Source of the DNA: a virus
Taxonomy: Duplodnaviria; Heunggongvirae; Uroviricota; Caudoviricetes
Virus record (IMG/VR): IMGVR_UViG_2541047798_000005
DNA length: 53,426 bases
Direction: 5' to 3' (one strand)
The stretch's first letter is position 1. Every line of letters starts with the position of its first letter. A model generated the notes under the pieces. The model had not been told where the DNA came from and did not search any database. It saw only the letters and a list, made by a program, of their open reading frames with translations. The position numbers were made by a program, and so were the translations under genes. Of this stretch, positions 3,683 through 51,352 are shown piece by piece.

Positions 3683-5104
3683 TTAAAAAGATGCGTTATT
3701 CTGGTTGTTTCGTGGTGAGAATCGGCTTGCAGACGGACGTTGTTGCATTGACTGGATGCAAGCTGACGCCGCGCGGGCCTGGTCGCATGGTAAGATGTTG
3801 CCGTTGTCGTCAAACCGCTGGTAAACAGTCCCCGTTTTCCCGTGACGGTTTTTCGAAACAATGATCTCCATATATTCGCGGGCAACAGACTGTTCATCAT
3901 AGTACCCGTCGCGGTAGACCATGATGATCCGGTCTGCGTCCTGTTCAAGATTACCGGAATCACGCAGATCAGAATTGTTCGGGCGCTTGTTCGGTCGTTC
4001 CTCAACGCGGCGGGATAATTGCGCCAGTGCCAACACTGGTACGCGCAATTCTTTCGCCATCATCTTCAACGACCATGACAATTGCCCTACAGCGAGATCG
4101 TGACGTTCTGCCTTAGCCAGCTTCATTAACCCGATGTAGTCAATCATTACCATACCCAGGTTGGGATAATCCTGCTTCATTCGTTCAGTTGTGGCGCGTA
4201 TTTCCTCGACAGTTAACTGTGATGCATCAACAATCCACACATCGAGATCAGCAAGTGCGCTCATTCCCTGGGCAACGTGCGCCCATCCTTCGTCATCCAG
4301 TTTTACCGGATTACGTAAGCAATCCGTTGACAAGTTCCCTGCGCCAGCGATAGCGCGTTCAGTCATCTGATCGAGCGACATTTCAAGCGTGAACAACAAA
4401 ACGCCGACCCGCTGACCTTCTCCGCCAGGGTATTGGCGTTCAGCAGCCGCGCGGGCAATTGCCAACGCCAACGCCGATTTACCAGACCCTGGGCGTCCGG
4501 CGATAAGCACCAGATCAGTAGCGTTAATGCCGCCTAACATTTCGTCGAGTGGGTCAATCCCTGTTTTGATGTTGTCAGAGTTCACGCCACACTCCATGCG
4601 TTTACTTAGCACTTCCGTGTATTCCTGGACAGCATCGCGCAACAGCACCGGGATAATCTGATCTTTTGTTACCTTTAATTTTGAATACCGGGAATCAAAA
4701 TCTTTCATCGTCTCTTTGACGACCTCAAGTGTCCCAGTTTCCAGTTTGTAGCGCATATCGTCGATGAGTTCCAACATCTGCCGCCGCTGGTGCTCTTCAC
4801 GTAGTAGCTGTGCATATCCCTTCAGGTTGGCAGCAGAAGGGCACGATCGCGCCGTTTGCATTAGCGGTACAAAGTTTTCATTACCAATCTCATCACCAAC
4901 CAATAACGCGTCGATAAGATTCCTGTTTCTGGCTTGCGCCCGGATAATTTCAAACGCCCGCTTATACAGCGGAATAGTGAACACTTCAGGATCTAGCGTA
5001 GCGAGAACATCTTGCGCGTTAGGAGTGAGGCCGCCTAATAGCAGCCCGCCGATAACTGACGCTTCACGTTCCTGCAGTAGTGAGTTTATCTGCTCAGTTA
5101 CCAT
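3683..5104 (-). CDS. Replicative DNA helicase, DnaB family
   Basis: 473 aa; Walker A GRPGSGKS, DnaB C-terminal RecA-like domain with characteristic N-terminal domain; GGAGG RBS. Confidence 0.9.
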   Translation of the reverse strand: MVTEQINSLLQEREASVIGGLLLGGLTPNAQDVLATLDPEVFTIPLYKRAFEIIRAQARNRNLIDALLVGDEIGNENFVPLMQTARSCPSAANLKGYAQLLREEHQRRQMLELIDDMRYKLETGTLEVVKETMKDFDSRYSKLKVTKDQIIPVLLRDAVQEYTEVLSKRMECGVNSDNIKTGIDPLDEMLGGINATDLVLIAGRPGSGKSALALAIARAAAERQYPGGEGQRVGVLLFTLEMSLDQMTERAIAGAGNLSTDCLRNPVKLDDEGWAHVAQGMSALADLDVWIVDASQLTVEEIRATTERMKQDYPNLGMVMIDYIGLMKLAKAERHDLAVGQLSWSLKMMAKELRVPVLALAQLSRRVEERPNKRPNNSDLRDSGNLEQDADRIIMVYRDGYYDEQSVAREYMEIIVSKNRHGKTGTVYQRFDDNGNILPCDQARAASACIQSMQQRPSASRFSPRNNQNNASF

Positions 5105-5122: not shown

Positions 5123-6241
5123 TTACAAAATGGAATATTCAGGGTAATAAACAAAGCGCCCGATCTCACCATAATCCTGGCTGTAAATAATCACCGCTGC
5201 CATACGACGTGACCGCCAGCCGCCATTAGTTGAGTAAGCGTCTTTACCCGCTAACGTGCCGTGATACTCAACAACGCCTAACGATGATTCAATTAGCCGT
5301 TGATGATGCCAGTGCCCGCAATGAGCGTAAACCGCCGCAGACTTGCCAAAGTCTTCTCGCCAGTCAGAGACGCAGGCAGACAACAAATTTTCAGGTTTTT
5401 TGATAGTATGACCGTGATGATATGCAAGGAATGTTTTGCCGTACTGTGTGTGGTGGACGATAGCAGGGGACACATCAACAGTTACGCGCGGTTCATCTTC
5501 GTAAAAAGCCGCCAGCGCCGCACGTAGCCAAATCATGCCAGACTGATCGTGATTGCCTGATAGTACCTGGATTTCAATATCCTTATGATTTAACAACATC
5601 TTTCCTACCGCCCGACGTACCGCTCGGATCGCTACATAGACAAGTTTTGCATAGCGTGAATCGCAATCCAGTACGTGATTGCTTGATGGCGTAACTGGCA
5701 ACAGCCCGTCAGTGTGAAGAACATCCCCACCGAGAAGCAAAACAGCTTTTTCAGACATCGGCGCAGCGCCCACCGCGTAGTCAAAGAATTCATTCAACAC
5801 GCGTTCAGCGATCCCAGTGTCGTAGCTCTCGCCGCATTCAGCTTTATGAGCAAGCGCCCCGATATGCAGATCAAATACCGGATAAAGGGCCAGGCTTTTT
5901 TGAAAATCAATTTCAGGCACTGGCACGGCCTCCGCGCGTGGTATTTCTTCCGTGAATGCGTCGCGGGCAGCTTCCATTAGCCTTTCCATTTCATCACGGT
6001 CACGGGCAGTTTTAATCCAGCGCATGACCGTATTACCAGCCTTATCGACAAGAACAGATTCACCAGTAACGCCAAAACCAGGCGCGCGACGCGTTGATAT
6101 TAAACCGCGTTTCGCCAGTTTTGCGCCTAGCCGCTCGACGTTGCGTTTTGACATGCCATATTTTTCAGCGATCTGCTTGTACGTTAAACCGTTGTTATAT
6201 TCAGCGATCAATTGCTCATCGCTGATTTTTCTTTGCGACAT
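5123..6241 (-). CDS. N-terminal HTH domain fused to calcineurin-like metallophosphoesterase
   Basis: 372 aa; N-terminal HTH (LTYKQIAEKYGMSKRNVERL); phosphoesterase motifs DLHIG, GGDVLHTD, GNHD, HHGH, GHWHH. Confidence 0.6.
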   Translation of the reverse strand: MSQRKISDEQLIAEYNNGLTYKQIAEKYGMSKRNVERLGAKLAKRGLISTRRAPGFGVTGESVLVDKAGNTVMRWIKTARDRDEMERLMEAARDAFTEEIPRAEAVPVPEIDFQKSLALYPVFDLHIGALAHKAECGESYDTGIAERVLNEFFDYAVGAAPMSEKAVLLLGGDVLHTDGLLPVTPSSNHVLDCDSRYAKLVYVAIRAVRRAVGKMLLNHKDIEIQVLSGNHDQSGMIWLRAALAAFYEDEPRVTVDVSPAIVHHTQYGKTFLAYHHGHTIKKPENLLSACVSDWREDFGKSAAVYAHCGHWHHQRLIESSLGVVEYHGTLAGKDAYSTNGGWRSRRMAAVIIYSQDYGEIGRFVYYPEYSIL

Positions 6242-7371: not shown

Positions 7372-8424
7372 TCAAAGAACGCCAGCGCGCGTATCACGTA
7401 GCGTTTTTGGTTTAAGCAGGAAATCAAGTGTCGCGGTGAAGCCATCGCCGAAGTAAAAATCTGAAGCCGTGTTTTTGAACGTTTCGAAGTAGGCGACAAA
7501 GCCGTTAATGCTTTTGTCTTTCAGGTAGTCAGTGAACGCATAGATCTTGCGTTCAAGATCCCGATCCAGTTCGGCAGGTGGTAACAGGCCGTCAAACGTG
7601 CTGTTAAATGCTTCCACCACGTCGGCAGCGTTTACAGTGGCTGACAGTTTGCGCCATTGTTCAGCATCAGTCAGATACCCATCAAATTTAGTTACCCGGC
7701 AAATGTTGATAGGCTTAGGTACTCCACCACGGCTACGCCATTGGGTTAAAGCCCACTCAATTACTAACGTGATCTCATTCTCCGTATACGCTTTACGTGT
7801 TTTTGTTTCTGTCAGTAGTTCTACGAATGGCTTAGCATCACGACATTTGCATCCTGCCTTGTCGTTGTAGAAGGCAAGGCAACGCAATGCCGCTTCGTTT
7901 ACGCCATCCTGATTGACCATTTTTTGTTCATTTTCGACAATACACGAAGTGTATATATCTTTTTCTCTTTCTTTTTCTACTTCTAATTCTAATTCATGAC
8001 CCTTTCCTGACCCGGTCATGACCCTATCATGACCTTTTTGTGTTGGATTGATTAACTTTTCTAATTTTAATTGCTCCTTCGCTGTGTTTATGGCGGCCCT
8101 GTAAGCGCTTTTAGAAGTCATTGATTGGTCCAGCCTTTTCAATAACTTTAAACAAGTTATGTGGCCTTGAGAACATTCAAACAAACCAATTTCGATGAAG
8201 TATTTCATCATTTCTTCTATACGTTTTTCAGTAGATCCGACGTTTCGCGCAATTATTCTTGCGTCATGTCGTAGGTCAAAAGTTAGATTGTGCTGATCTA
8301 CGTCATAAGTTATTAGTTCTAGGCAATACCAATAAAGCCCGTACCCTTCCAGGCCATAATCTAACAAAACGTTTTGAAGTTTTTCATCGCGGTTCGCATC
8401 GCTGTCATGCTTAAACCACTTCAT
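7372..8424 (-). CDS. Replication initiation protein with phage replisome-organizer-type N-terminal domain
   Basis: 350 aa; N-terminus MKWFKHDSDANRDEKLQNVLLDYGLEGYGLYWYCLELI typical of replisome-organizer / DUF4373-type N-domains; sits where lambda O would be. Confidence 0.65.
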   Translation of the reverse strand: MKWFKHDSDANRDEKLQNVLLDYGLEGYGLYWYCLELITYDVDQHNLTFDLRHDARIIARNVGSTEKRIEEMMKYFIEIGLFECSQGHITCLKLLKRLDQSMTSKSAYRAAINTAKEQLKLEKLINPTQKGHDRVMTGSGKGHELELEVEKEREKDIYTSCIVENEQKMVNQDGVNEAALRCLAFYNDKAGCKCRDAKPFVELLTETKTRKAYTENEITLVIEWALTQWRSRGGVPKPINICRVTKFDGYLTDAEQWRKLSATVNAADVVEAFNSTFDGLLPPAELDRDLERKIYAFTDYLKDKSINGFVAYFETFKNTASDFYFGDGFTATLDFLLKPKTLRDTRAGVL

Positions 8425-8990: not shown

Positions 8991-9638
8991 ATGAAAACAA
9001 AATGGTATGACTTAGCAAAGCAGCTCATGCGGGCGCAGGGCATGAGCCAGGATTCACTCGCGGATCGTATGGGGATAACTAAAGGCGGCCTGTCACACTG
9101 GCTGAACGGTCGCCGAGAGCCAAATCTTGAAGATATTGCGCGGATTATGCGCGAGCTTGGTCGTCGGCAGTTTACTGTTACACATGATGGCATGGTCATT
9201 GATGATTCTGTTTCTAATACACTTCAGGCCGTGCCGCCGCGTGATTTAGGTAGTTACCCGGTTATTGACTGGAAGGACACAGTAAACAATATGGATGACG
9301 CAAGGCGTTCAGCATTACGACACGTTACGACTAGCGTTATTTGTTCAGATGACAGTTACTGGCTGGTTGCCAAAGGTGAATCAATGAACGCGCCGCAGGG
9401 GTTGAGCATCCCGGCGGGGACGATGATACTTGTGGACCCGCACGCGCCAGCTATTGACGGCAAACTGGTTATAGCCCAGCTTGAGGAAGGGCAGATACCG
9501 ACGTTTAAACAGTTGATTATTGATGGAGGTCAAAGGCTTTTACGTTCGCTCAATCCGCTGTATCCGCCAATCCCTATGAATCCAGAATCAAAAATTATAG
9601 GCGTGGTGGTTGATGCGAAGATCGTAAACCTGCCATAA
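8991..9638 (+). CDS. cI: cI-like repressor (N-terminal HTH, C-terminal S24 LexA-like peptidase domain)
   Basis: 215 aa; HTH (GMSQDSLADRMGITKGGLSHWLNGRR); S24 motifs GESM and K-containing C-terminus; no RBS before ATG, consistent with a leaderless pRM-type transcript. Confidence 0.85.
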   Translation: MKTKWYDLAKQLMRAQGMSQDSLADRMGITKGGLSHWLNGRREPNLEDIARIMRELGRRQFTVTHDGMVIDDSVSNTLQAVPPRDLGSYPVIDWKDTVNNMDDARRSALRHVTTSVICSDDSYWLVAKGESMNAPQGLSIPAGTMILVDPHAPAIDGKLVIAQLEEGQIPTFKQLIIDGGQRLLRSLNPLYPPIPMNPESKIIGVVVDAKIVNLP

Positions 9639-12157: not shown

Positions 12158-12273
12158 GCATGGTAAAAATTGCGGCATTAGCCGCCGCCTTCGTTATTGG
12201 GGTGATTTATATCACAGCTTCTTTTTATGTCGCCGTTTTTATTGCTGAATTAATTGTTGCATTGTTGGGGTGA
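12154..12273 (+). CDS. Small hydrophobic membrane peptide (39 aa)
   Basis: ATGA overlap with upstream stop; MSMVKIAALAAAFVIGVIYITASFYVAVFIAELIVALLG. Confidence 0.4.
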   Translation: MSMVKIAALAAAFVIGVIYITASFYVAVFIAELIVALLG

Positions 12274-13804: not shown

Positions 13805-13902
13805 CAGCGTGATTGCGATCACATAAATATACATTTTGTATTGCGATCGCATATCCGTTTTGTAAACTGAAATTAAGAGGTTTACGGCACGGAGGAAACA
13901 AG

Positions 13903-17190: not shown

Positions 17191-17348
17191 AGTTTACAAA
17201 ATGGCATCATTGCGTGATGCGGATCACATAATGGCGCTTTTGCCTTGTTTGGTGGTATCCATTTTGTATACTTCAAGCAAACAAAATGCTCTTTAAAAAT
17301 CCGGCAGCGCTGAAATGCGTAGAAATCACCTGAAAAGGAGAGAGCATT

Positions 17349-22989: not shown

Positions 22990-23030
22990 GGTGTTGGACA
23001 ACCATAAATGTGATCTGTATCACAATGTAT

Positions 23031-37476: not shown

Positions 37477-38175
37477 ATGATCCATGTTCGTACAGGACAA
37501 TTTGCTGCCGTGGTGAACGGTAAGCGCTATGAGTTTAATCCTTGCTTTGCTGCGATGGCTAAAATCGGCAACGATAGTGAGCTTGTCGAATATTTCGCAC
37601 TTATCCACGGCGGCAAATATCCATCACGATTGCCAGCAGATCCAGACCTACGCAATCGCATTCTGGCGCGGTGTTATGGTGAAATAGTTAAGACATCAAT
37701 GCACATCCTGAAATGTTGCTCAGACGACGAAATAGGCCCGTTATTGGGCGAATGCTGGTTTACTCCTTCGGGTAAGTTAAAGTTAAAGCCCGGATTAATG
37801 CCGATCGAGGATATCATCACGCTTGCGCAGCACTGCATGTACCACGGTCTTATTGGTGATGGCCCGGAAGAAGAGTCCGGGGAAATCCCGGAAGGGGAAT
37901 ATAAGCCGACTTTTAACGTCCTTGAATTCGTCTATTCTGCCGTTGCTCACCTGGGCTTGTCAGAATCGGAAGCATGGAATATGACAATGACCGGATATAG
38001 GGCCGCTGTACGCGCTAAAACGCCGCCAGACGAAAGAAACGAGAAAAGCAAGCCAAACATTCACATAAATAAACGTGCTTATGACGAGCAAATGGAGGCC
38101 GCTAAAAAGGCACTAGAAAGAATGAAAAATCGTGAGCAAGAAAAGCCCGGTAGATCCGGGCGTTTTGCTAATTGA
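37477..38175 (+). CDS. Tail assembly chaperone (putative)
   Basis: 232 aa from ATG at 37477; located between major tail and tape measure genes. Confidence 0.4.
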   Translation: MIHVRTGQFAAVVNGKRYEFNPCFAAMAKIGNDSELVEYFALIHGGKYPSRLPADPDLRNRILARCYGEIVKTSMHILKCCSDDEIGPLLGECWFTPSGKLKLKPGLMPIEDIITLAQHCMYHGLIGDGPEEESGEIPEGEYKPTFNVLEFVYSAVAHLGLSESEAWNMTMTGYRAAVRAKTPPDERNEKSKPNIHINKRAYDEQMEAAKKALERMKNREQEKPGRSGRFAN

Positions 38176-38542
38176 AATCTTTAATTGCTGTACCTGGTGA
38201 ACTGTGTGTGATTGTATTGTATACAGACTTTGCCTTACTGCGATCTTTCCATTCTTTTAGGATGCAGTTATCAAACTTTGCGATAACCCTTGAAGGGGAT
38301 AATTCTTCAACATCCATGTAAGTAAATCCTATCGTGCTGGTTACTGAATACCATACGTGATAACTATAATTACCGTCATGCTCGATTCTTTGTGGTTCCC
38401 CCATTATTTTATTCACTTGCTCACAAGTCATTCCAACTTGCAAATTTTTATCAGCTAACTTAACGAAATCAGTTGATCTTGCGCACCCTGTAAGAGCTAA
38501 AGCCATAACACCAATGAGAACCGCTTTGATTATTTTTTTCAT
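38168..38542 (-). CDS. Lipoprotein (moron)
   Basis: 124 aa; signal peptide with lipobox LTGC; AAGGGG RBS; opposite strand to tail operon. Confidence 0.65.
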   Translation of the reverse strand: MKKIIKAVLIGVMALALTGCARSTDFVKLADKNLQVGMTCEQVNKIMGEPQRIEHDGNYSYHVWYSVTSTIGFTYMDVEELSPSRVIAKFDNCILKEWKDRSKAKSVYNTITHSSPGTAIKDFN

Positions 38543-38552
38543 GATTTACCCC

Positions 38553-39212
38553 TTAATTCCAGTTGCAAGCGTTTTTCACTTTGTCGATGTGGTTATAAAG
38601 ACCATCAATGTTAAACACTGCTTTCTCAATGTCGCCAGCTTCCGGCACTACTTCAATGATGAATTGTTTTTCGTTAACCAGTTTTTTAATCATTGGGATG
38701 GCTTTTTTGCCGTCCCATAATCCAAGAGCTTTATAATTAGTTGACCGCCACCACTCAGTAGCTACAGCTTTGTGAACGCCGATCCGGTAGTTAATATAAG
38801 TAGTGTCCCCGGCGTCAGTTACATGGTGTGACCATGCTACGAACATTTTTGTTTTATTACCCTGGCAAGCGATTGTTAATACCGGTTTATTCTTATCCTG
38901 TGCCTTCAGTGTCGGGAAAGCATCAAGACTTCCGCTGAATTGTTCTGCTTTCACAAAAAGGAATACGTTTTTTGCGTCCTGCATATCATCTTTTCTTTCA
39001 ACTACAAGCCACTGTTTACCAGCATTTTCTTTTTCTAACTGTGCATCGTATGCGGCTTGTTTTGCTTGTTGTTCTGCAAGCCATTTAGCATTTTTCTCTG
39101 CTAATGCTTGTTGCTCTTGATTGGTCACTATAGGCGCTTTTTCATTATCCTCATTGCAACCAACCAGACCCAATACCGCCGCAATCATTGCCACTTTTGC
39201 TAACCGTTTCAT
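38553..39212 (-). CDS. Lipoprotein (moron)
   Basis: 219 aa; signal peptide with lipobox LVGC; opposite strand to tail operon. Confidence 0.65.
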   Translation of the reverse strand: MKRLAKVAMIAAVLGLVGCNEDNEKAPIVTNQEQQALAEKNAKWLAEQQAKQAAYDAQLEKENAGKQWLVVERKDDMQDAKNVFLFVKAEQFSGSLDAFPTLKAQDKNKPVLTIACQGNKTKMFVAWSHHVTDAGDTTYINYRIGVHKAVATEWWRSTNYKALGLWDGKKAIPMIKKLVNEKQFIIEVVPEAGDIEKAVFNIDGLYNHIDKVKNACNWN

Positions 39213-39258: not shown

Positions 39259-39300
39259 TTATACAAAATGGAGTCGTTGAAGTAAAGCCATTTTGTATAA
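39259..39300. promoter_or_regulatory. Perfect 13-bp inverted repeat TTATACAAAATGG-N16-CCATTTTGTATAA; candidate divergent promoter/operator
   Basis: Each arm ends in a TATAA(A/G) -10-like hexamer facing outward toward the tape measure gene (+) and the lipoprotein genes (-). Confidence 0.5.
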
Positions 39301-39339
39301 AATAGATACACAGATCACATTTTTGCATGAGGTTAAATC

Positions 39340-41686: not shown

Positions 41687-41716
41687 AACCCCGGTGCAAT
41701 GCCGGGGTTATTTTTC
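41687..41716 (+). terminator. Rho-independent terminator after tape measure gene
   Basis: CCCCGG-tgcaatg-CCGGGG hairpin plus T-run; near-identical to the terminator at 35100. Confidence 0.75.
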
Positions 41717-41768: not shown

Positions 41769-42023
41769 TCACTTATGAGTGCCTTTCACGCCACATAACT
41801 TGTTATAGGCATGGTGCTCAACAATTAACCAAACCTTCAAATCTTCGCTAAACAGCCTCCAATCAAGATTGATATCCATTTTGTATCCGTAACCGTCGCG
41901 TAACTTTTTGGGGTAAACTTCTTTTCTCAGAAAGGCTTTAAGTAATTCCTTACCTTTCTTGATGATCCGGTCCTGTGCGTTTTTCTGTGCTTTCAGATTT
42001 CTGTCAATCGCTACCAGTTTCAT
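41769..42023 (-). CDS. Small basic protein, candidate toxin-like component of a two-gene cassette
   Basis: 84 aa; 17 nt downstream of a 51-aa ORF on the same strand; family not confidently assigned. Confidence 0.35.
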   Translation of the reverse strand: MKLVAIDRNLKAQKNAQDRIIKKGKELLKAFLRKEVYPKKLRDGYGYKMDINLDWRLFSEDLKVWLIVEHHAYNKLCGVKGTHK

Positions 42024-42040
42024 AACTCACCCCATCATCC

Positions 42041-42196
42041 TTAGTTAAGTGCCTTCAGGAAGAAGTCCCGGTATTCATCTTCTTTCGCATTCATCATGAA
42101 TTGACCGTATTTGAATGCGTCGTCGAAACCCTTAACGATTGCTATTTCCACTTGTTCGAATGCGTTATTTAGCATTACTACTACATAGCGTTTCAT
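42041..42196 (-). CDS. Small protein (51 aa), candidate antitoxin-like partner
   Basis: Not in ORF track; ATG with GGAGG RBS; candidate promoter TTCACA-17-TATATA upstream on minus strand. Confidence 0.35.
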   Translation of the reverse strand: MKRYVVVMLNNAFEQVEIAIVKGFDDAFKYGQFMMNAKEDEYRDFFLKALN

Positions 42197-42236: not shown

Positions 42237-42304
42237 TATATACATCTTGTTGCGTGCTATGTGAAGCCATTTTGTAAACTAGCTATAATCATTGTGACAA
42301 TGAT
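42237..42304. promoter_or_regulatory. Control region: minus-strand promoter (TTCACA-17-TATATA), CCATTTTGTAAAC motif, TATAAT box and perfect palindrome ATCATTGTgACAATGAT (42288-42304)
   Basis: Direct reading; palindrome has 8-bp arms around a single central base. Confidence 0.45.
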
Positions 42305-42363: not shown

Positions 42364-42717
42364 ATGCCGGAAGTGTTCAGATGGACGCCGCAAAGAAGCT
42401 ACAGCGTGACCAGGAAGCCAGACGTATCTGTTGTTAAGCTGGGCGATGGTTATGAGCAAAGACAGGTAAAAGGTATCAATCCATTGCTTGATAGCTACAC
42501 CCTGGTGTTTAAAGGCAGTAGCGCCGGATGTGGTGATGGTGGAAACGTAGCAATCCAGGCGGAAGCATTCTTGAGGGCGCGCGGCGCGGTCGAGGCTTTT
42601 TACTGGTCGCCGTCAATGGATAACGTGCAAAGGCTTTTTGTCTGTCGGCAATGGAGCATGACTAAAGACGGGCCTTTGTACACGCTAAACGCAACGTTTG
42701 AGCAAGTTGTTGGCTAA
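42364..42717 (+). CDS. M: Minor tail protein M
   Basis: 117 aa; similarity to lambda gpM as recalled (...FRW.....LGDGY.QR...G.N.....Y...F......FEQVV). Confidence 0.8.
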   Translation: MPEVFRWTPQRSYSVTRKPDVSVVKLGDGYEQRQVKGINPLLDSYTLVFKGSSAGCGDGGNVAIQAEAFLRARGAVEAFYWSPSMDNVQRLFVCRQWSMTKDGPLYTLNATFEQVVG

Positions 42718-42914
42718 TGGGGGTTGTTATGTACGGGACTTGTGTAGTTGACAAAACTTACGCTTTTACATTGTTTGACGACTATGAGATCAACGACCTT
42801 ACTGTAAAAGCTGACAACGGCGATATATGGTATCTTCACGACGTTGGTGATGGGTACGTTGGGTGTAGATCCCGGGAAGGGAAGGAGGTTTTATTTTTGG
42901 TTGATGGCGTATAA
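42717..42914 (+). CDS. Hypothetical small protein (moron, between M and L)
   Basis: 65 aa; followed by terminator. Confidence 0.4.
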   Translation: MGVVMYGTCVVDKTYAFTLFDDYEINDLTVKADNGDIWYLHDVGDGYVGCRSREGKEVLFLVDGV

Positions 42915-42918
42915 ACAC

Positions 42919-42947
42919 GACCCCGCGCGAAGCGGGGTTATTTTTAT
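42919..42947 (+). terminator. Rho-independent terminator
   Basis: CCCCGC-gcgaa-GCGGGG hairpin followed by TTATTTTTA. Confidence 0.7.
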
Positions 42948-43070
42948 TCTATTTCCATTAATGCTATATTTTCTGCTATCGTTTTCCAGTCCAGATCTAC
43001 AGCATGAACGCCAAATACTATCAACCCCATTATTATTAGCGCCAAAACTTCTATTTTTATAATCAGTCAC

Positions 43071-43319
43071 CTATAAGTTATCACGCAGATAATTAACGCC
43101 CTTATCAGTGACGAATGAATGGTTAACCTGGTTTTCATCCGTCATGATGATGAATAACTTTTCATGTAGGTATTTCGCTTTCGGGTACAGCGTTAAACAG
43201 ACCTGGTACAGTATCCCGCGCTCAATCAGCAAATCAATAAATTCGTGTTCATGATAACCGATGAGGCGGGCGGCCTGTTTCAACGTGTACACATAATCAC
43301 CGTGATTGCGCCGCCCCAT
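43071..43319 (-). CDS. Hypothetical protein (moron cassette gene 3)
   Basis: 82 aa; opposite strand to tail operon. Confidence 0.45.
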   Translation of the reverse strand: MGRRNHGDYVYTLKQAARLIGYHEHEFIDLLIERGILYQVCLTLYPKAKYLHEKLFIIMTDENQVNHSFVTDKGVNYLRDNL

Positions 43320-43328
43320 GTTGCCGCC

Positions 43329-43676
43329 TTATTTATCGAATGCTGAAAGGTTATCGATACAGAAATCTTTCGCCGCTTTTTCGTATTCGCGTTTTGCTTC
43401 TGGATCGTCAGCCGGGAAACCTTTTGCGTGTATTTCACCAGGGCAAGACTGGTCCATAGAATCTGCATAATAAGCAGTGAAGCTACCATTAATATCTTTC
43501 GGGTTCATATCTTCCACCTCATCAACTATCTGTACCGGATTAGCAGCATATTTCACTGGATGGCCTAAACTACATTCAAGAATCCTGCCTTCTTCCAGGG
43601 CTACTTCTTCGCTATCAAATAATCCGAAACACTCCTTGCTACCACTTAACCACACATCAAGACTGTATTTTTTCAT
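43329..43676 (-). CDS. Hypothetical protein (moron cassette gene 2)
   Basis: 115 aa from ATG at 43676 with GAGG RBS. Confidence 0.45.
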   Translation of the reverse strand: MKKYSLDVWLSGSKECFGLFDSEEVALEEGRILECSLGHPVKYAANPVQIVDEVEDMNPKDINGSFTAYYADSMDQSCPGEIHAKGFPADDPEAKREYEKAAKDFCIDNLSAFDK

Positions 43677-43845
43677 TTTTGTTAGCCTCATATTTGACAG
43701 GTTCGATCTGGTATCCCAAAAGGCGGTCATCCTCAGCAAGTAAAAGCGCGTCAACCAATGCTTCACCCTCGTCGTCATACAGGGCGATAACCTTTTCCCT
43801 ACCGTCTGTCATGAATACCGTCAACTTCCATAGCTTTTCAGTCAT
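43657..43845 (-). CDS. Hypothetical small acidic protein (moron cassette gene 1)
   Basis: 62 aa from ATG at 43845 with GGAGG RBS; overlaps gene 2 start by 20 nt. Confidence 0.4.
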   Translation of the reverse strand: MTEKLWKLTVFMTDGREKVIALYDDEGEALVDALLLAEDDRLLGYQIEPVKYEANKNEKIQS

Positions 43846-43974
43846 AACGCACCTCCGCGCCATTTTGTTAACTATGCTTCCGTTTGAGTAAAATATACAT
43901 ATTGTAAAAACCGCGATCAATCCATTTTGGTATGATTTAGCGTGACGCAGATCACAGAATGACAAGGTGAGAAA

Positions 43975-44679
43975 ATGCGCAATATTCCGAGAGAAATGAT
44001 TATTGATTCCGTCGATGCCGGAGTCGGCGCGGTAATTGACTTGTTTGAATTAGACCTCACGCCCCTGGGTGGCGAGGTTATCCGCTTCCATTCCGGCGTG
44101 AATGGCTATTACGGCCCGGTTATCTGGAAGGGGGTGGCTTACAACAGCTACCCTATCGAGGCCACTGGCTTCGAAATGAAAAACGAGGGTGTCTATTCAC
44201 GCCCGCAAATGGTTGTAGCCAACATTGGCGGCCTAATCACCGGGATGAATAACGATTTCAACGACCTGCGAGGAATGAAAGTTACACGCCGCCAGGTGGA
44301 AGTAAAATACCTGGACGCCATCAACTTCCCCAACGGCAACCCGGATGCAGATCCGTCTATCGAGGCGGTGTCTTTTTACGTCGTTGAGGCGATGAGCGAA
44401 GAAACAGCCGACCAGGTGCAATATGAGCTGTCAACGCCAATTGATGCTGACAAGGCGGTTATCCCAGGGCGCACAATCCTTGCTGACGTTTGCCAATGGC
44501 AATATCGCGGCGACGGTTGCGGATACAGTGGCGGCCCTGTAGCTACTGATAAAGACGAATCGACCAGCGATCCAAAGCTGGATAAATGCAGCCACCGCCT
44601 GAGCGGTTGCCGTTTACGTTTCCCGCGCCCGAATCCGTTACCAATTTCATGTTTCCCAGGATCGAGCAAGGTGGGTTGA
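43975..44679 (+). CDS. L: Minor tail protein L
   Basis: 234 aa; similarity to lambda gpL as recalled (...DLTPLGGEV..F......Y..YPI...GFE.......RP...V.N......GM......L.G..V.RR.V....LDA.NF.NGN..ADP...). Confidence 0.85.
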   Translation: MRNIPREMIIDSVDAGVGAVIDLFELDLTPLGGEVIRFHSGVNGYYGPVIWKGVAYNSYPIEATGFEMKNEGVYSRPQMVVANIGGLITGMNNDFNDLRGMKVTRRQVEVKYLDAINFPNGNPDADPSIEAVSFYVVEAMSEETADQVQYELSTPIDADKAVIPGRTILADVCQWQYRGDGCGYSGGPVATDKDESTSDPKLDKCSHRLSGCRLRFPRPNPLPISCFPGSSKVG

Positions 44680-50909: not shown

Positions 50910-51155
50910 TTATTTTTTACACCCATCATTTACACCAGAAAAATGGATAGGTAAATTACATTCACTGTCAATAATTTTACCTTGTAGTTGTTTTTCTTTC
51001 CATGAGTCAGTATTGAAATAACTCGAACGTTGGTTATCAAGGCCAGTATCACCATATTGAGCAGTGCCAGCATCACTCTTATCTGTCGAATTTACAGAAG
51101 CAAAAGCACCAAAAGACAGAGCTGATAAGATGCAAGCAACAATTAGTTTTTTCAT
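50910..51155 (-). CDS. Small secreted protein (moron)
   Basis: 81 aa from ATG at 51155; Sec signal peptide MKKLIVACILSALSFGAFA; two Cys near C-terminus. Confidence 0.5.
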   Translation of the reverse strand: MKKLIVACILSALSFGAFASVNSTDKSDAGTAQYGDTGLDNQRSSYFNTDSWKEKQLQGKIIDSECNLPIHFSGVNDGCKK

Positions 51156-51352
51156 TGTATTCACCTTACTGTTTGTTTTACTGTCATTTGTTGTTCGTGA
51201 TGATCCACCCATCCGATGAGCAAATCACCGCAGAAGCTATCATTTCGTATGTTGATATAGATCAAAAAATACATTATGTATAAGCCCAAAGTGTAACACA
51301 GATCACAAAATGGTAGAATTGTTTAGTTAATTAACAAAACGGAGTTATTGCG

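Follow-up and report, generated by a model that had tools for sequence, protein, structure and literature searches.

A three-gene antisense unit between tail genes M and L

The DNA studied here, referred to as the window, is the whole 53,426-nucleotide (nt) stretch of IMG/VR record IMGVR_UViG_2541047798_000005, an E. coli prophage of the mEp021, or "mEpimmI", group. Between tail genes M and L it carries a cassette of three co-directional open reading frames (ORFs) on the minus strand, orfA (43657–43845, 62 amino acids (aa)), orfB (43329–43676, 115 aa) and orfC (43071–43319, 82 aa), whose products we call A, B and C. The original prediction for this region had the coordinates, lengths and a 20-nt overlap of A and B right. 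It had also credited the genes with good ribosome-binding sites, which could be read from the sequence for all three (GGAGGTG with the ATG 5 nt downstream for A, GAGG with the ATG 9 nt downstream for B, and AAGG with the ATG approximately 8 nt downstream for C). RefSeq annotates the same three coding sequences in E. coli M1/5, and the longer versions that upstream ATG codons would allow (68 or 102 aa for A, 149 aa for B) do not stay open in other alleles. The overlap proved particular to the window allele, most A alleles stopping at ...PVK, approximately 15 nt ahead of B. Homologues in related contigs, and ratios of non-synonymous to synonymous change (dN/dS) well below 1, indicated that C, B and A are real genes.

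The cassette is predicted to be a self-contained transcription unit that runs on the minus strand from approximately 43885 down to approximately 42920. At its downstream end a G+C-rich hairpin (42919–42939) would terminate transcription on both strands, ending the M-orf65 unit (+) as well as the cassette (−); it has a weak T-tract on the minus side, and the mEp021 annotation lists the corresponding hairpin as a bidirectional terminator. What remains of a fourth, optional gene, for a hydrophobic peptide of 38–49 aa, is found between orfC and this hairpin (42944–43045, −; MKIEVLALIIMGLIVFGVHA...). This gene is intact in many relatives, the ORF there beginning ATGAAAATAGAAG; in the window its ATG has become ATA and internal TTG/ATG starts alone remain. 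In some relatives further small genes follow B or C. The products of these additional genes (77–79 aa, 67 aa, 58 aa and the hydrophobic peptide) gave no informative family match, and Rfam returned zero family matches anywhere in the window. On the plus strand, a 65-aa ORF (42717–42914; phrog_3249, of unknown function) shares an ATGA overlap with the stop codon of M and ends at the hairpin; it is annotated in mEp021 (gp70) and unannotated by RefSeq in M1/5.

Conservation of the cassette in the mEpimmI group

The mEp021-type phages have been described as a Nus-dependent, non-lambdoid group, as common as lambdoid phages in one human-faecal collection of temperate coliphages (PMC11893012). The 1.1 kb round the cassette was 100% identical to the E. 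coli M1/5 prophage (over 42900–44000) and 83–90% identical to mEp021, mEp010, mEp013, mEp044, mEp515, mEp554 and MagusPhagus, and the cassette region was found in 35 of 5,426 complete E. coli genomes. A set of 44 related IMG/VR contigs was retrieved with C as the query, and in all 44 a C homologue lay between L and M. A B homologue was likewise present in every one (N-terminally truncated in three), and A was recognisable in all but one, a contig designated L043 with an unrelated 52-aa ORF in its place. All seven mEpimmI phage records examined also carry C and B. The cassette is therefore not sporadic cargo; it is fixed across the whole mEpimmI lineage and varies by allele. The original prediction had suggested an analysis of conservation and neighbourhood across prophages, and the retention between M and L in 44 contigs bears it out on position; its term "accessory module" does not suit a fixed unit whose KilAC-like protein belongs to the manually derived core set of the group, as one of those that the automated core set lacks (PMC11893012).

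The junction itself was examined in outgroup phages whose L is approximately 70% identical. M and L were contiguous at 18 of 36 loci, in keeping with the earlier statement that lambda has no genes here. At the remaining 18 loci M and L were 300–1300 nt apart and separated by different, mostly antisense cargo; A, B and C were in none of the 36. Examples of this cargo are a 268-aa DUF6602/PD-(D/E)xK NucC-like nuclease (locus L264, 9023–9829, −) and a 154-aa aspartyl-protease-like protein (L282, 9370–9834, −), with further cargo at other loci among L247–L282. The variety of the outgroup cargo indicated that the M–L junction is a hot spot for moron insertion, of which the cassette is one fixed occupant.

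We favour the interpretation of the cassette as a moron-type insertion in this junction. It is an insert between genes that are adjacent in relatives, its G+C content (41–44%) deviates from that of M (51%) and L (53%), and, judged by sequence signals, its own promoter and terminator flank it. The presence in some close relatives and absence from others that is also associated with morons was not seen, C and B being in all 44 contigs. Morons of siphophage tail clusters include lambda lom and bor and HK97 gp15. The cassette resembles these in having its own promoter and terminator, a lower G+C content and neighbours that are adjacent in relatives. It differs in that lom/bor and HK97 gp15 are single genes with membrane products, whereas the cassette has three genes, fixed in the lineage, with acidic products taken to be cytoplasmic.

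Protein C is a KilAC domain alone

Protein C matched Pfam family PF03374 (ANT/KilAC) with 29.4 bits against a gathering threshold of 25.3, over model positions 23–105 of 108. The RefSeq label for C is also of the KilAC/ANT type, and PF03374 is precomputed on six of the seven C cluster representatives. These seven clusters form a narrow subfamily (74–96% identity, all 82 aa, E. coli only), and neither protein B nor C turned up when one genome per species was scanned. In tblastn searches, residues 12–78 of C were 30–38% identical to the C-terminal ends of 217–233 aa antirepressor/Rha proteins from Vibrio, Cronobacter, Hafnia and Stx phages. As the nearest outside relatives of C are thus the C-terminal ~70 residues of antirepressors, C is the KilAC domain alone. 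No N-terminal AntA/B, BRO-N, pRha or KilA-N module was found in C, which has the same length in all its relatives.

In the structural model the fold of C is a winged helix of the MerR/Xis/AlpA/Cox type. The protein is neutral overall and its second helix, normally the recognition helix, has the acidic sequence EHEFIDLLIE. Based on this charge distribution, DNA binding by C was not assumed.

Experiments on an isolated KilAC domain are limited to the Listeria protein AriS, in which this domain suffices to block the SOS response, with RecA the probable point of action (PMC9043618). C belongs to the same family as AriS and the Ant1/Ant2-type antirepressors of P1 and P7, and the KilAC domain of AriS is active on its own. 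However, AriS and Ant1/Ant2 are two-domain proteins, whereas C is an 82-aa domain predicted to be co-transcribed with two unrelated small proteins. As a natural stand-alone KilAC, C offers a clean test of this widespread "antirepressor" domain in E. coli and lets the generality of AriS-type SOS inhibition be asked.

Proteins A and B share a small acidic domain

Proteins A and B are both acidic (pI 4.4) and confined to the mEpimmI group. A consists of a conserved core of 51 aa and a variable tail. B has two parts, a hypervariable beta-beta-alpha-beta domain formed by residues 1–55 (B-N; 43512–43676, −) and a conserved acidic C-terminal module at residues 68–115 (43329–43475 with the stop codon, −; ADSMDQSCPGEIHAKGFPADDPEAKREYEKAAKDFCIDNL...). 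AlphaFold2 modelled B-N as strand-strand-helix-strand with a pLDDT of ~90; the C-terminal module had low model confidence save for a helix at 92–107. Residues S73, M74, D75, C78, G86, F87, P88, A89 and F105 of this module are invariant.

Comparison of A with B-N by hhalign gave a score of 29.3 over 45 columns (E 4.5e-6), against a mean of 9.3 (standard deviation 2.2, maximum 19.8) in 200 column-shuffled controls, and a shallower alignment returned the identical register with E 4.5e-3. We take A and B-N to be paralogues, and by its alignment to the modelled domain of B-N, A would have the same beta-beta-alpha-beta fold.

A profile search of 1.84 billion representatives with B recovered only its own family and two short stand-alone versions of the C-terminal module, of 56 aa and 39 aa, from small-gene arrays of unrelated phages. 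The existence of free-standing modules makes B look like a fusion of two modules. The free-standing copies (56 aa at 5001–5171 of L048 and 39 aa at 5001–5120 of L052) come from metagenome phages with Mu-like heads, and in L052 there is a 20-nt overlap between the 39-aa gene and a 66-aa gene upstream of it. In B, Met57 (43506–43508) is nearly invariant within the variable linker, has GAGGTG 6 nt upstream in the window allele and lies where the free-standing homologues begin. Translation could also start at Met57, yielding the C-terminal module alone.

Database searches gave A and B no match in Pfam, PHROGs with known function, NCBIfam or PADLOC. Searches of PADLOC-DB 2.0 with A, B and C gave zero matches at E up to 0.1, and sequence searches of the PDB with A and B were empty. 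The earlier view that none of the three proteins matches a family therefore failed for C, with its PF03374 match, and survived for A and B, for which the only match was the function-less phrog_29559, to A. The accompanying view that the function was undescribed also stood, in that no described role was found. PADLOC returned no known defence family. The NCBI label "transporter" on some A homologues was without profile support. B-N has a strand-strand-helix-strand fold class in common with T7 Gp2, AcrIC8 and DUF7336-type miniproteins, although the scores were below significance and these proteins lack sequence or profile similarity to A and B. Homology to T7 Gp2, suspected by eye, was rejected (hhalign probability 6%), and the DUF7336 profile matched no member of the B family (44) or the A family (15), leaving a resemblance at fold level alone. 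Literature searches with the accessions, DUF7336 or the motif strings described below found nothing.

Alleles of A and B-N reassort under purifying selection

All three cassette genes are under purifying selection. Their dN/dS values by the Nei-Gojobori method were 0.24 for A, 0.26 for B-N, 0.11 for the C-terminal module of B and 0.11 for C, compared with 0.05 for L and 0.08 for M. Nucleotide diversity was 0.10–0.15 in L, approximately 0.09–0.10 in the control region and 0.22–0.46 in A and B-N, with B-N reaching 0.46, and it fell to 0.08 in the C-terminal module of B and 0.05 in C. Synonymous divergence (dS) was 1.24 in B-N against 0.58 in the rest of B, which indicated old alleles and not a recent burst of change. 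In addition, the four A types and six B-N types occurred in 11 combinations among 44 loci. A and B-N are thus a hypervariable island of freely reassorting alleles with conserved flanks. Domain duplication and cassette-like shuffling of alleles in proteins of 50 residues are a signature of conflict or specificity.

Covariation of these alleles with the rest of the genome was examined by Mantel correlations across ~160 ORFs in 34 near-complete genomes assembled by means of three additional anchor searches. No locus among the ~160 ORFs correlated with B-N distances (r ≤0.19; A 0.23). For the neighbours of B-N, r was 0.23 with A, 0.07 with the C-terminal module of B, 0.00 with C and 0.04 with L. 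The idea that A/B variability tracks repressor specificity was rejected, the repressor being 90–100% identical in all contigs. A correlated with a Lin1244/Lin1753-domain replication gene 36 kb away (7372–8424, −; r = 0.55, partial r = 0.38); this correlation was driven by four divergent genomes and may reflect population structure.

The control region and group-wide motifs

The divergent control region between L (+) and orfA (−), at 43846–43974, is compact and nearly invariant in an alignment of 12 diverse loci. It contains a predicted sigma70-like cassette promoter (43892–43920, −) with −35 TTGATC (43920–43915), a 17-nt spacer and −10 TATATT (43897–43892). This promoter had nine of 12 consensus matches in a consensus scan, both hexamers are invariant across the 12 aligned loci, and it lies at least 25 nt upstream of the ribosome-binding site of A; the consensus-based transcription start would be at ~43885 (43885–43887). 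A palindrome with the CRP consensus core TGTGA-N6-TCACA lies at 43941–43956 (CGTGACGCAGATCACA; TGTGATCTGCGTCACG on the minus strand). Its centre, 43948.5, is 61.5–63.5 nt upstream of the predicted start, the reference position for class I CRP sites being −61.5.

The region also holds two plus-strand copies of the string CCATTTTG, at 43860 and 43922, which proved to be the head of a 14-nt motif (14-mer), CCATTTTGTAwACT, that ends in a −10-like hexamer. Copy 1 (43860–43873, here CCATTTTGTTAACT) points toward L and overlaps the 5′ untranslated region of the cassette; it is invariant across the 12 aligned loci, and since other alleles lack an intact in-frame upstream ATG, coding does not account for this conservation. 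Copy 2 (43922–43936, CCATTTTGGTATGAT) includes TGgTATGAT, which is extended −10-like, and points toward L back-to-back with the cassette −35. The cassette promoter therefore sits between two 14-mer copies, back-to-back with one and face-to-face with the other.

These observations agree with the original prediction in that the antisense cassette has a control region of its own and in that two CCATTTTG motifs and a CAGATCACA box are present there, CAGATCACA being half of TGTGATCTGCGTCACG. The reading of these motifs as control elements particular to the cassette did not hold: they are copies of a phage-wide set of signals, and both CCATTTTG copies face L. In the window CCATTTTG occurred 16 times against 3.7 expected, and TGTGA-N6-TCAC six times against 0.18 expected; none of 100 shuffles reached either count. 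The 14-mer was present at 1.6 per 10 kb in mEpimmI genomes and was absent from 583 kb of outgroup phages, where the palindrome occurred at 0.05 per 10 kb compared with 0.76 per 10 kb in mEpimmI genomes. The 14-mer is intergenic and mostly aimed at the downstream gene, its targets being a cro-like gene, three early-region genes, a VasI-like moron, the tape-measure gene, M, L and an Lpp-type lipoprotein gene, and it looks like the −10 region of a promoter plus an upstream element. In the window 14-mers are at 5126, 8910, 9753, 13855, 17197, 17259, 23056, 39264, 39288, 42267, 43860, 43922, 51306 and 51334. Palindromes of the form (T/C)GTGA-N6-TCACA are at 12202–12216, 13809–13823, 17214–17228, 23009–23024 and 43941–43956, with half-site-like copies near 39304 and 51300.

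Here and at homologous sites in 34 related genomes the half-sites of the palindrome are invariant and its spacer of 4–6 nt is variable. Fixed half-sites with a free spacer are, on this comparison of sequences, the footprint of a dimeric protein. The cassette palindrome may be read by host CRP or by a phage protein of the same specificity. At three early promoters the palindrome is ~58–62 nt upstream of the predicted starts; in the three early-region cases it is ~47 nt upstream of the −10-like part of the 14-mer. No LexA box was found in the window and no CI-operator-like palindrome near the cassette. The cassette is thus an entry point to a promoter/operator code particular to the group, comprising CCATTTTGTAwACT and CRP-type palindromes.

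Possible role of the cassette

The window encodes a repressor (8991–9638, +) with HTH_3 and Peptidase_S24 domains and the catalytic motifs GESM and FKQL. There was no obvious Ala-Gly cleavage site in its linker, and this, together with the window having no LexA box, is consistent with the report that most mEpimmI phages are not inducible by ultraviolet (UV) light (PMC11893012).

Based on these observations, we tentatively favour a role for the cassette as a modulator of the induction/SOS axis. This choice follows from the KilAC domain being the sole part of the cassette with a functional precedent, from the cassette being fixed and not optional, and from the presence of an S24-type repressor in a group that is yet mostly not UV-inducible. 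Transcription would begin at the sigma70-type promoter of the cassette and run antisense to the late operon, an arrangement that points to expression from the prophage and/or early in infection, opposed by late transcription. The CRP-consensus site ~60 bp upstream would place it under catabolite or CRP-like control. Its products would be small binding proteins and not enzymes or parts of the virion. C would act on the induction axis, its target being either the S24-type repressor or RecA/SOS, and A and B would serve as partners or inhibitors whose specificity depends on the allele, the constant tail of B docking a constant partner. The layout of the unit, its conservation, the A/B-N paralogy, the folds and the motif counts are shown; we infer the timing of expression, any CRP dependence, all of the protein–protein contacts and the biological role.

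A more specific form of this proposal, which we consider improbable as a whole, is a new kind of catabolite-responsive secondary control region of the non-UV-inducible mEpimmI prophages, in which a stand-alone KilAC gates RecA/SOS- or repressor-dependent induction and two duplicated, hypervariable miniproteins, one tethered to a conserved docking peptide, set a sensitivity that is specific to the strain or competitor. If true, A and B would be the first members of a new family of phage modulators that swap specificity. Control of lysis and lysogeny outside the main immunity region has had no description so far in the mEpimmI group. Secondary immunity regions located within late genes are exemplified by immI of P22 (mnt-arc-ant) and immI of P1 (c4-icd-ant). 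The cassette resembles these as a small, separately promoted operon distant from the main immunity region, in which small, tightly spaced ORFs precede a terminal gene of the antirepressor family. It differs from them in having no ribbon-helix-helix repressor (B-N modelled, A aligned), no antisense RNA known to Rfam and no CI-operator-like or LexA site, and in its Ant-like product being cut to one domain.

Several findings weigh against a role in induction. The promoter and transcription start are consensus predictions, and the CRP-like site is 4–5 bp farther from the −10 than at the three early palindrome promoters. C is only ~30–38% identical to antirepressor C-termini and is without their N-terminal domain, and its acidic helix EHEFIDLLIE argues against classical DNA binding and gives no positive hint of the target. 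The AriS result is from a Gram-positive host, under overexpression. The main weakness is the absence of an obvious Ala-Gly site, which could alone explain the lack of UV induction. Finally, the alleles of A and B-N track neither the repressor nor other loci, the Mantel scan finding no partner, and their hypervariability fits a role in host conflict at least as well as a regulatory one.

That last point bears on the alternative of a module for phage–host or phage–phage conflict, in which A and B are allele-specific inhibitors (for anti-defence, superinfection exclusion or defence) and C a mere regulator of transcription or partner. We place this main rival only slightly below the role in induction, since the pattern of variation and the hot-spot setting fit it well: a diversity of 0.22–0.46 in A and B-N against 0.05–0.15 in the flanks with a dS of 1.24, the 11 combinations of four by six allele types unlinked even to adjacent segments, and a small, acidic character in a fold class common to many phage proteins of 50–60 aa and weakly to T7 Gp2 and AcrIC8. 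In addition, the C-terminal module of B stands alone in early small-gene arrays of other phages, outgroup M–L junctions hold a NucC-like nuclease and other antisense cargo, and antisense slots nearby in the window are occupied by a VasI-like gene, a pair with a ParE-like toxin and a lipoprotein that is a candidate for Lpp-type exclusion (see below). However, no match to PADLOC or to a known anti-defence family was obtained, every member carries the genes although cargo of this sort is usually present in some phages and absent from others, and an overall dN/dS of 0.24–0.26 is not positive selection. The smaller idea of a type II toxin–antitoxin system, in which A would be the small upstream antitoxin, B the larger toxin overlapping it and C an additional regulator, draws on the gene order, the 20-nt overlap of the window allele and the genuine ParE-like cassette in the adjoining slot between the tape-measure gene and M. 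This we judge very unlikely. Pfam, PHROGs, NCBIfam and PADLOC gave no match to a toxin or antitoxin family, A and B are both acidic and have the same small domain, A is without a recognisable DNA-binding fold, the overlap is not conserved, and the free reassortment of A with B-N (Mantel r = 0.23) is unlike that of cognate pairs.

The motifs of the control region raise a different alternative, namely that C is a DNA-binding regulator of the 14-mer promoters and/or the palindromes, with the cassette a global transcription-control operon and A and B its anti-activators or co-factors. C is the most conserved gene of the region and has the winged helix of MerR/Xis/AlpA/Cox proteins, both motifs are enriched in mEpimmI genomes relative to outgroups, and two 14-mers and one palindrome flank the cassette promoter. 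Such a role for C nevertheless appears unlikely given that the putative recognition helix is strongly acidic in a neutral protein, that several other phage-encoded regulators could read the sites, that the palindrome is the consensus of host CRP and that computation gave no direct link between C and either motif. The possibility that these are genes for ordinary tail-assembly or virion proteins, or non-functional ORFs, has only the location within the tail gene cluster in its favour and is scarcely credible. The cassette is on the opposite strand with its own predicted promoter and terminator, has a G+C content foreign to tail genes and is missing from related tail modules; its purifying selection and its conservation in 44 contigs rule out junk ORFs. 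The original prediction had proposed a homology check for ordinary tail assembly factors, and no similarity to tail proteins was found. Should the genes prove to be without phenotype, the cassette would be one more conserved moron of unknown function.

Other antisense units in the window

A second antisense cassette lies between the tape-measure gene and M (41769–42196, −) and encodes a ParE-like toxin (PF24732, 45 bits) preceded by a putative 51-aa antitoxin. It is bounded by a hairpin at 41687–41709, and upstream of it, near 42288–42304, is a perfect 17-bp palindrome (ATCATTGTGACAATGAT) that is operator-like. A third unit, just ahead of the tape-measure gene (38168–39212, −), consists of a gene for a 218-aa VasI/TagO-like protein (PF11319, 58 bits) followed by a 124-aa ORF. 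The VasI/TagO family is associated with type VI secretion, and this unit is preceded by a divergent pair of 14-mers at 39264 and 39288.

After gene J there is also an antisense lipoprotein gene (50910–51155, −), whose product begins MKKLIVACILSALSFGAFA... and gave no family match; it is a candidate by its position and lipoprotein-like signal sequence. PMC11893012 tested an Lpp-type superinfection-exclusion gene, probably this one. The region upstream of it (51213–51352) contains two 14-mers, one of which is fused to the palindrome-like sequence TGTGATCTGTGTTACA.

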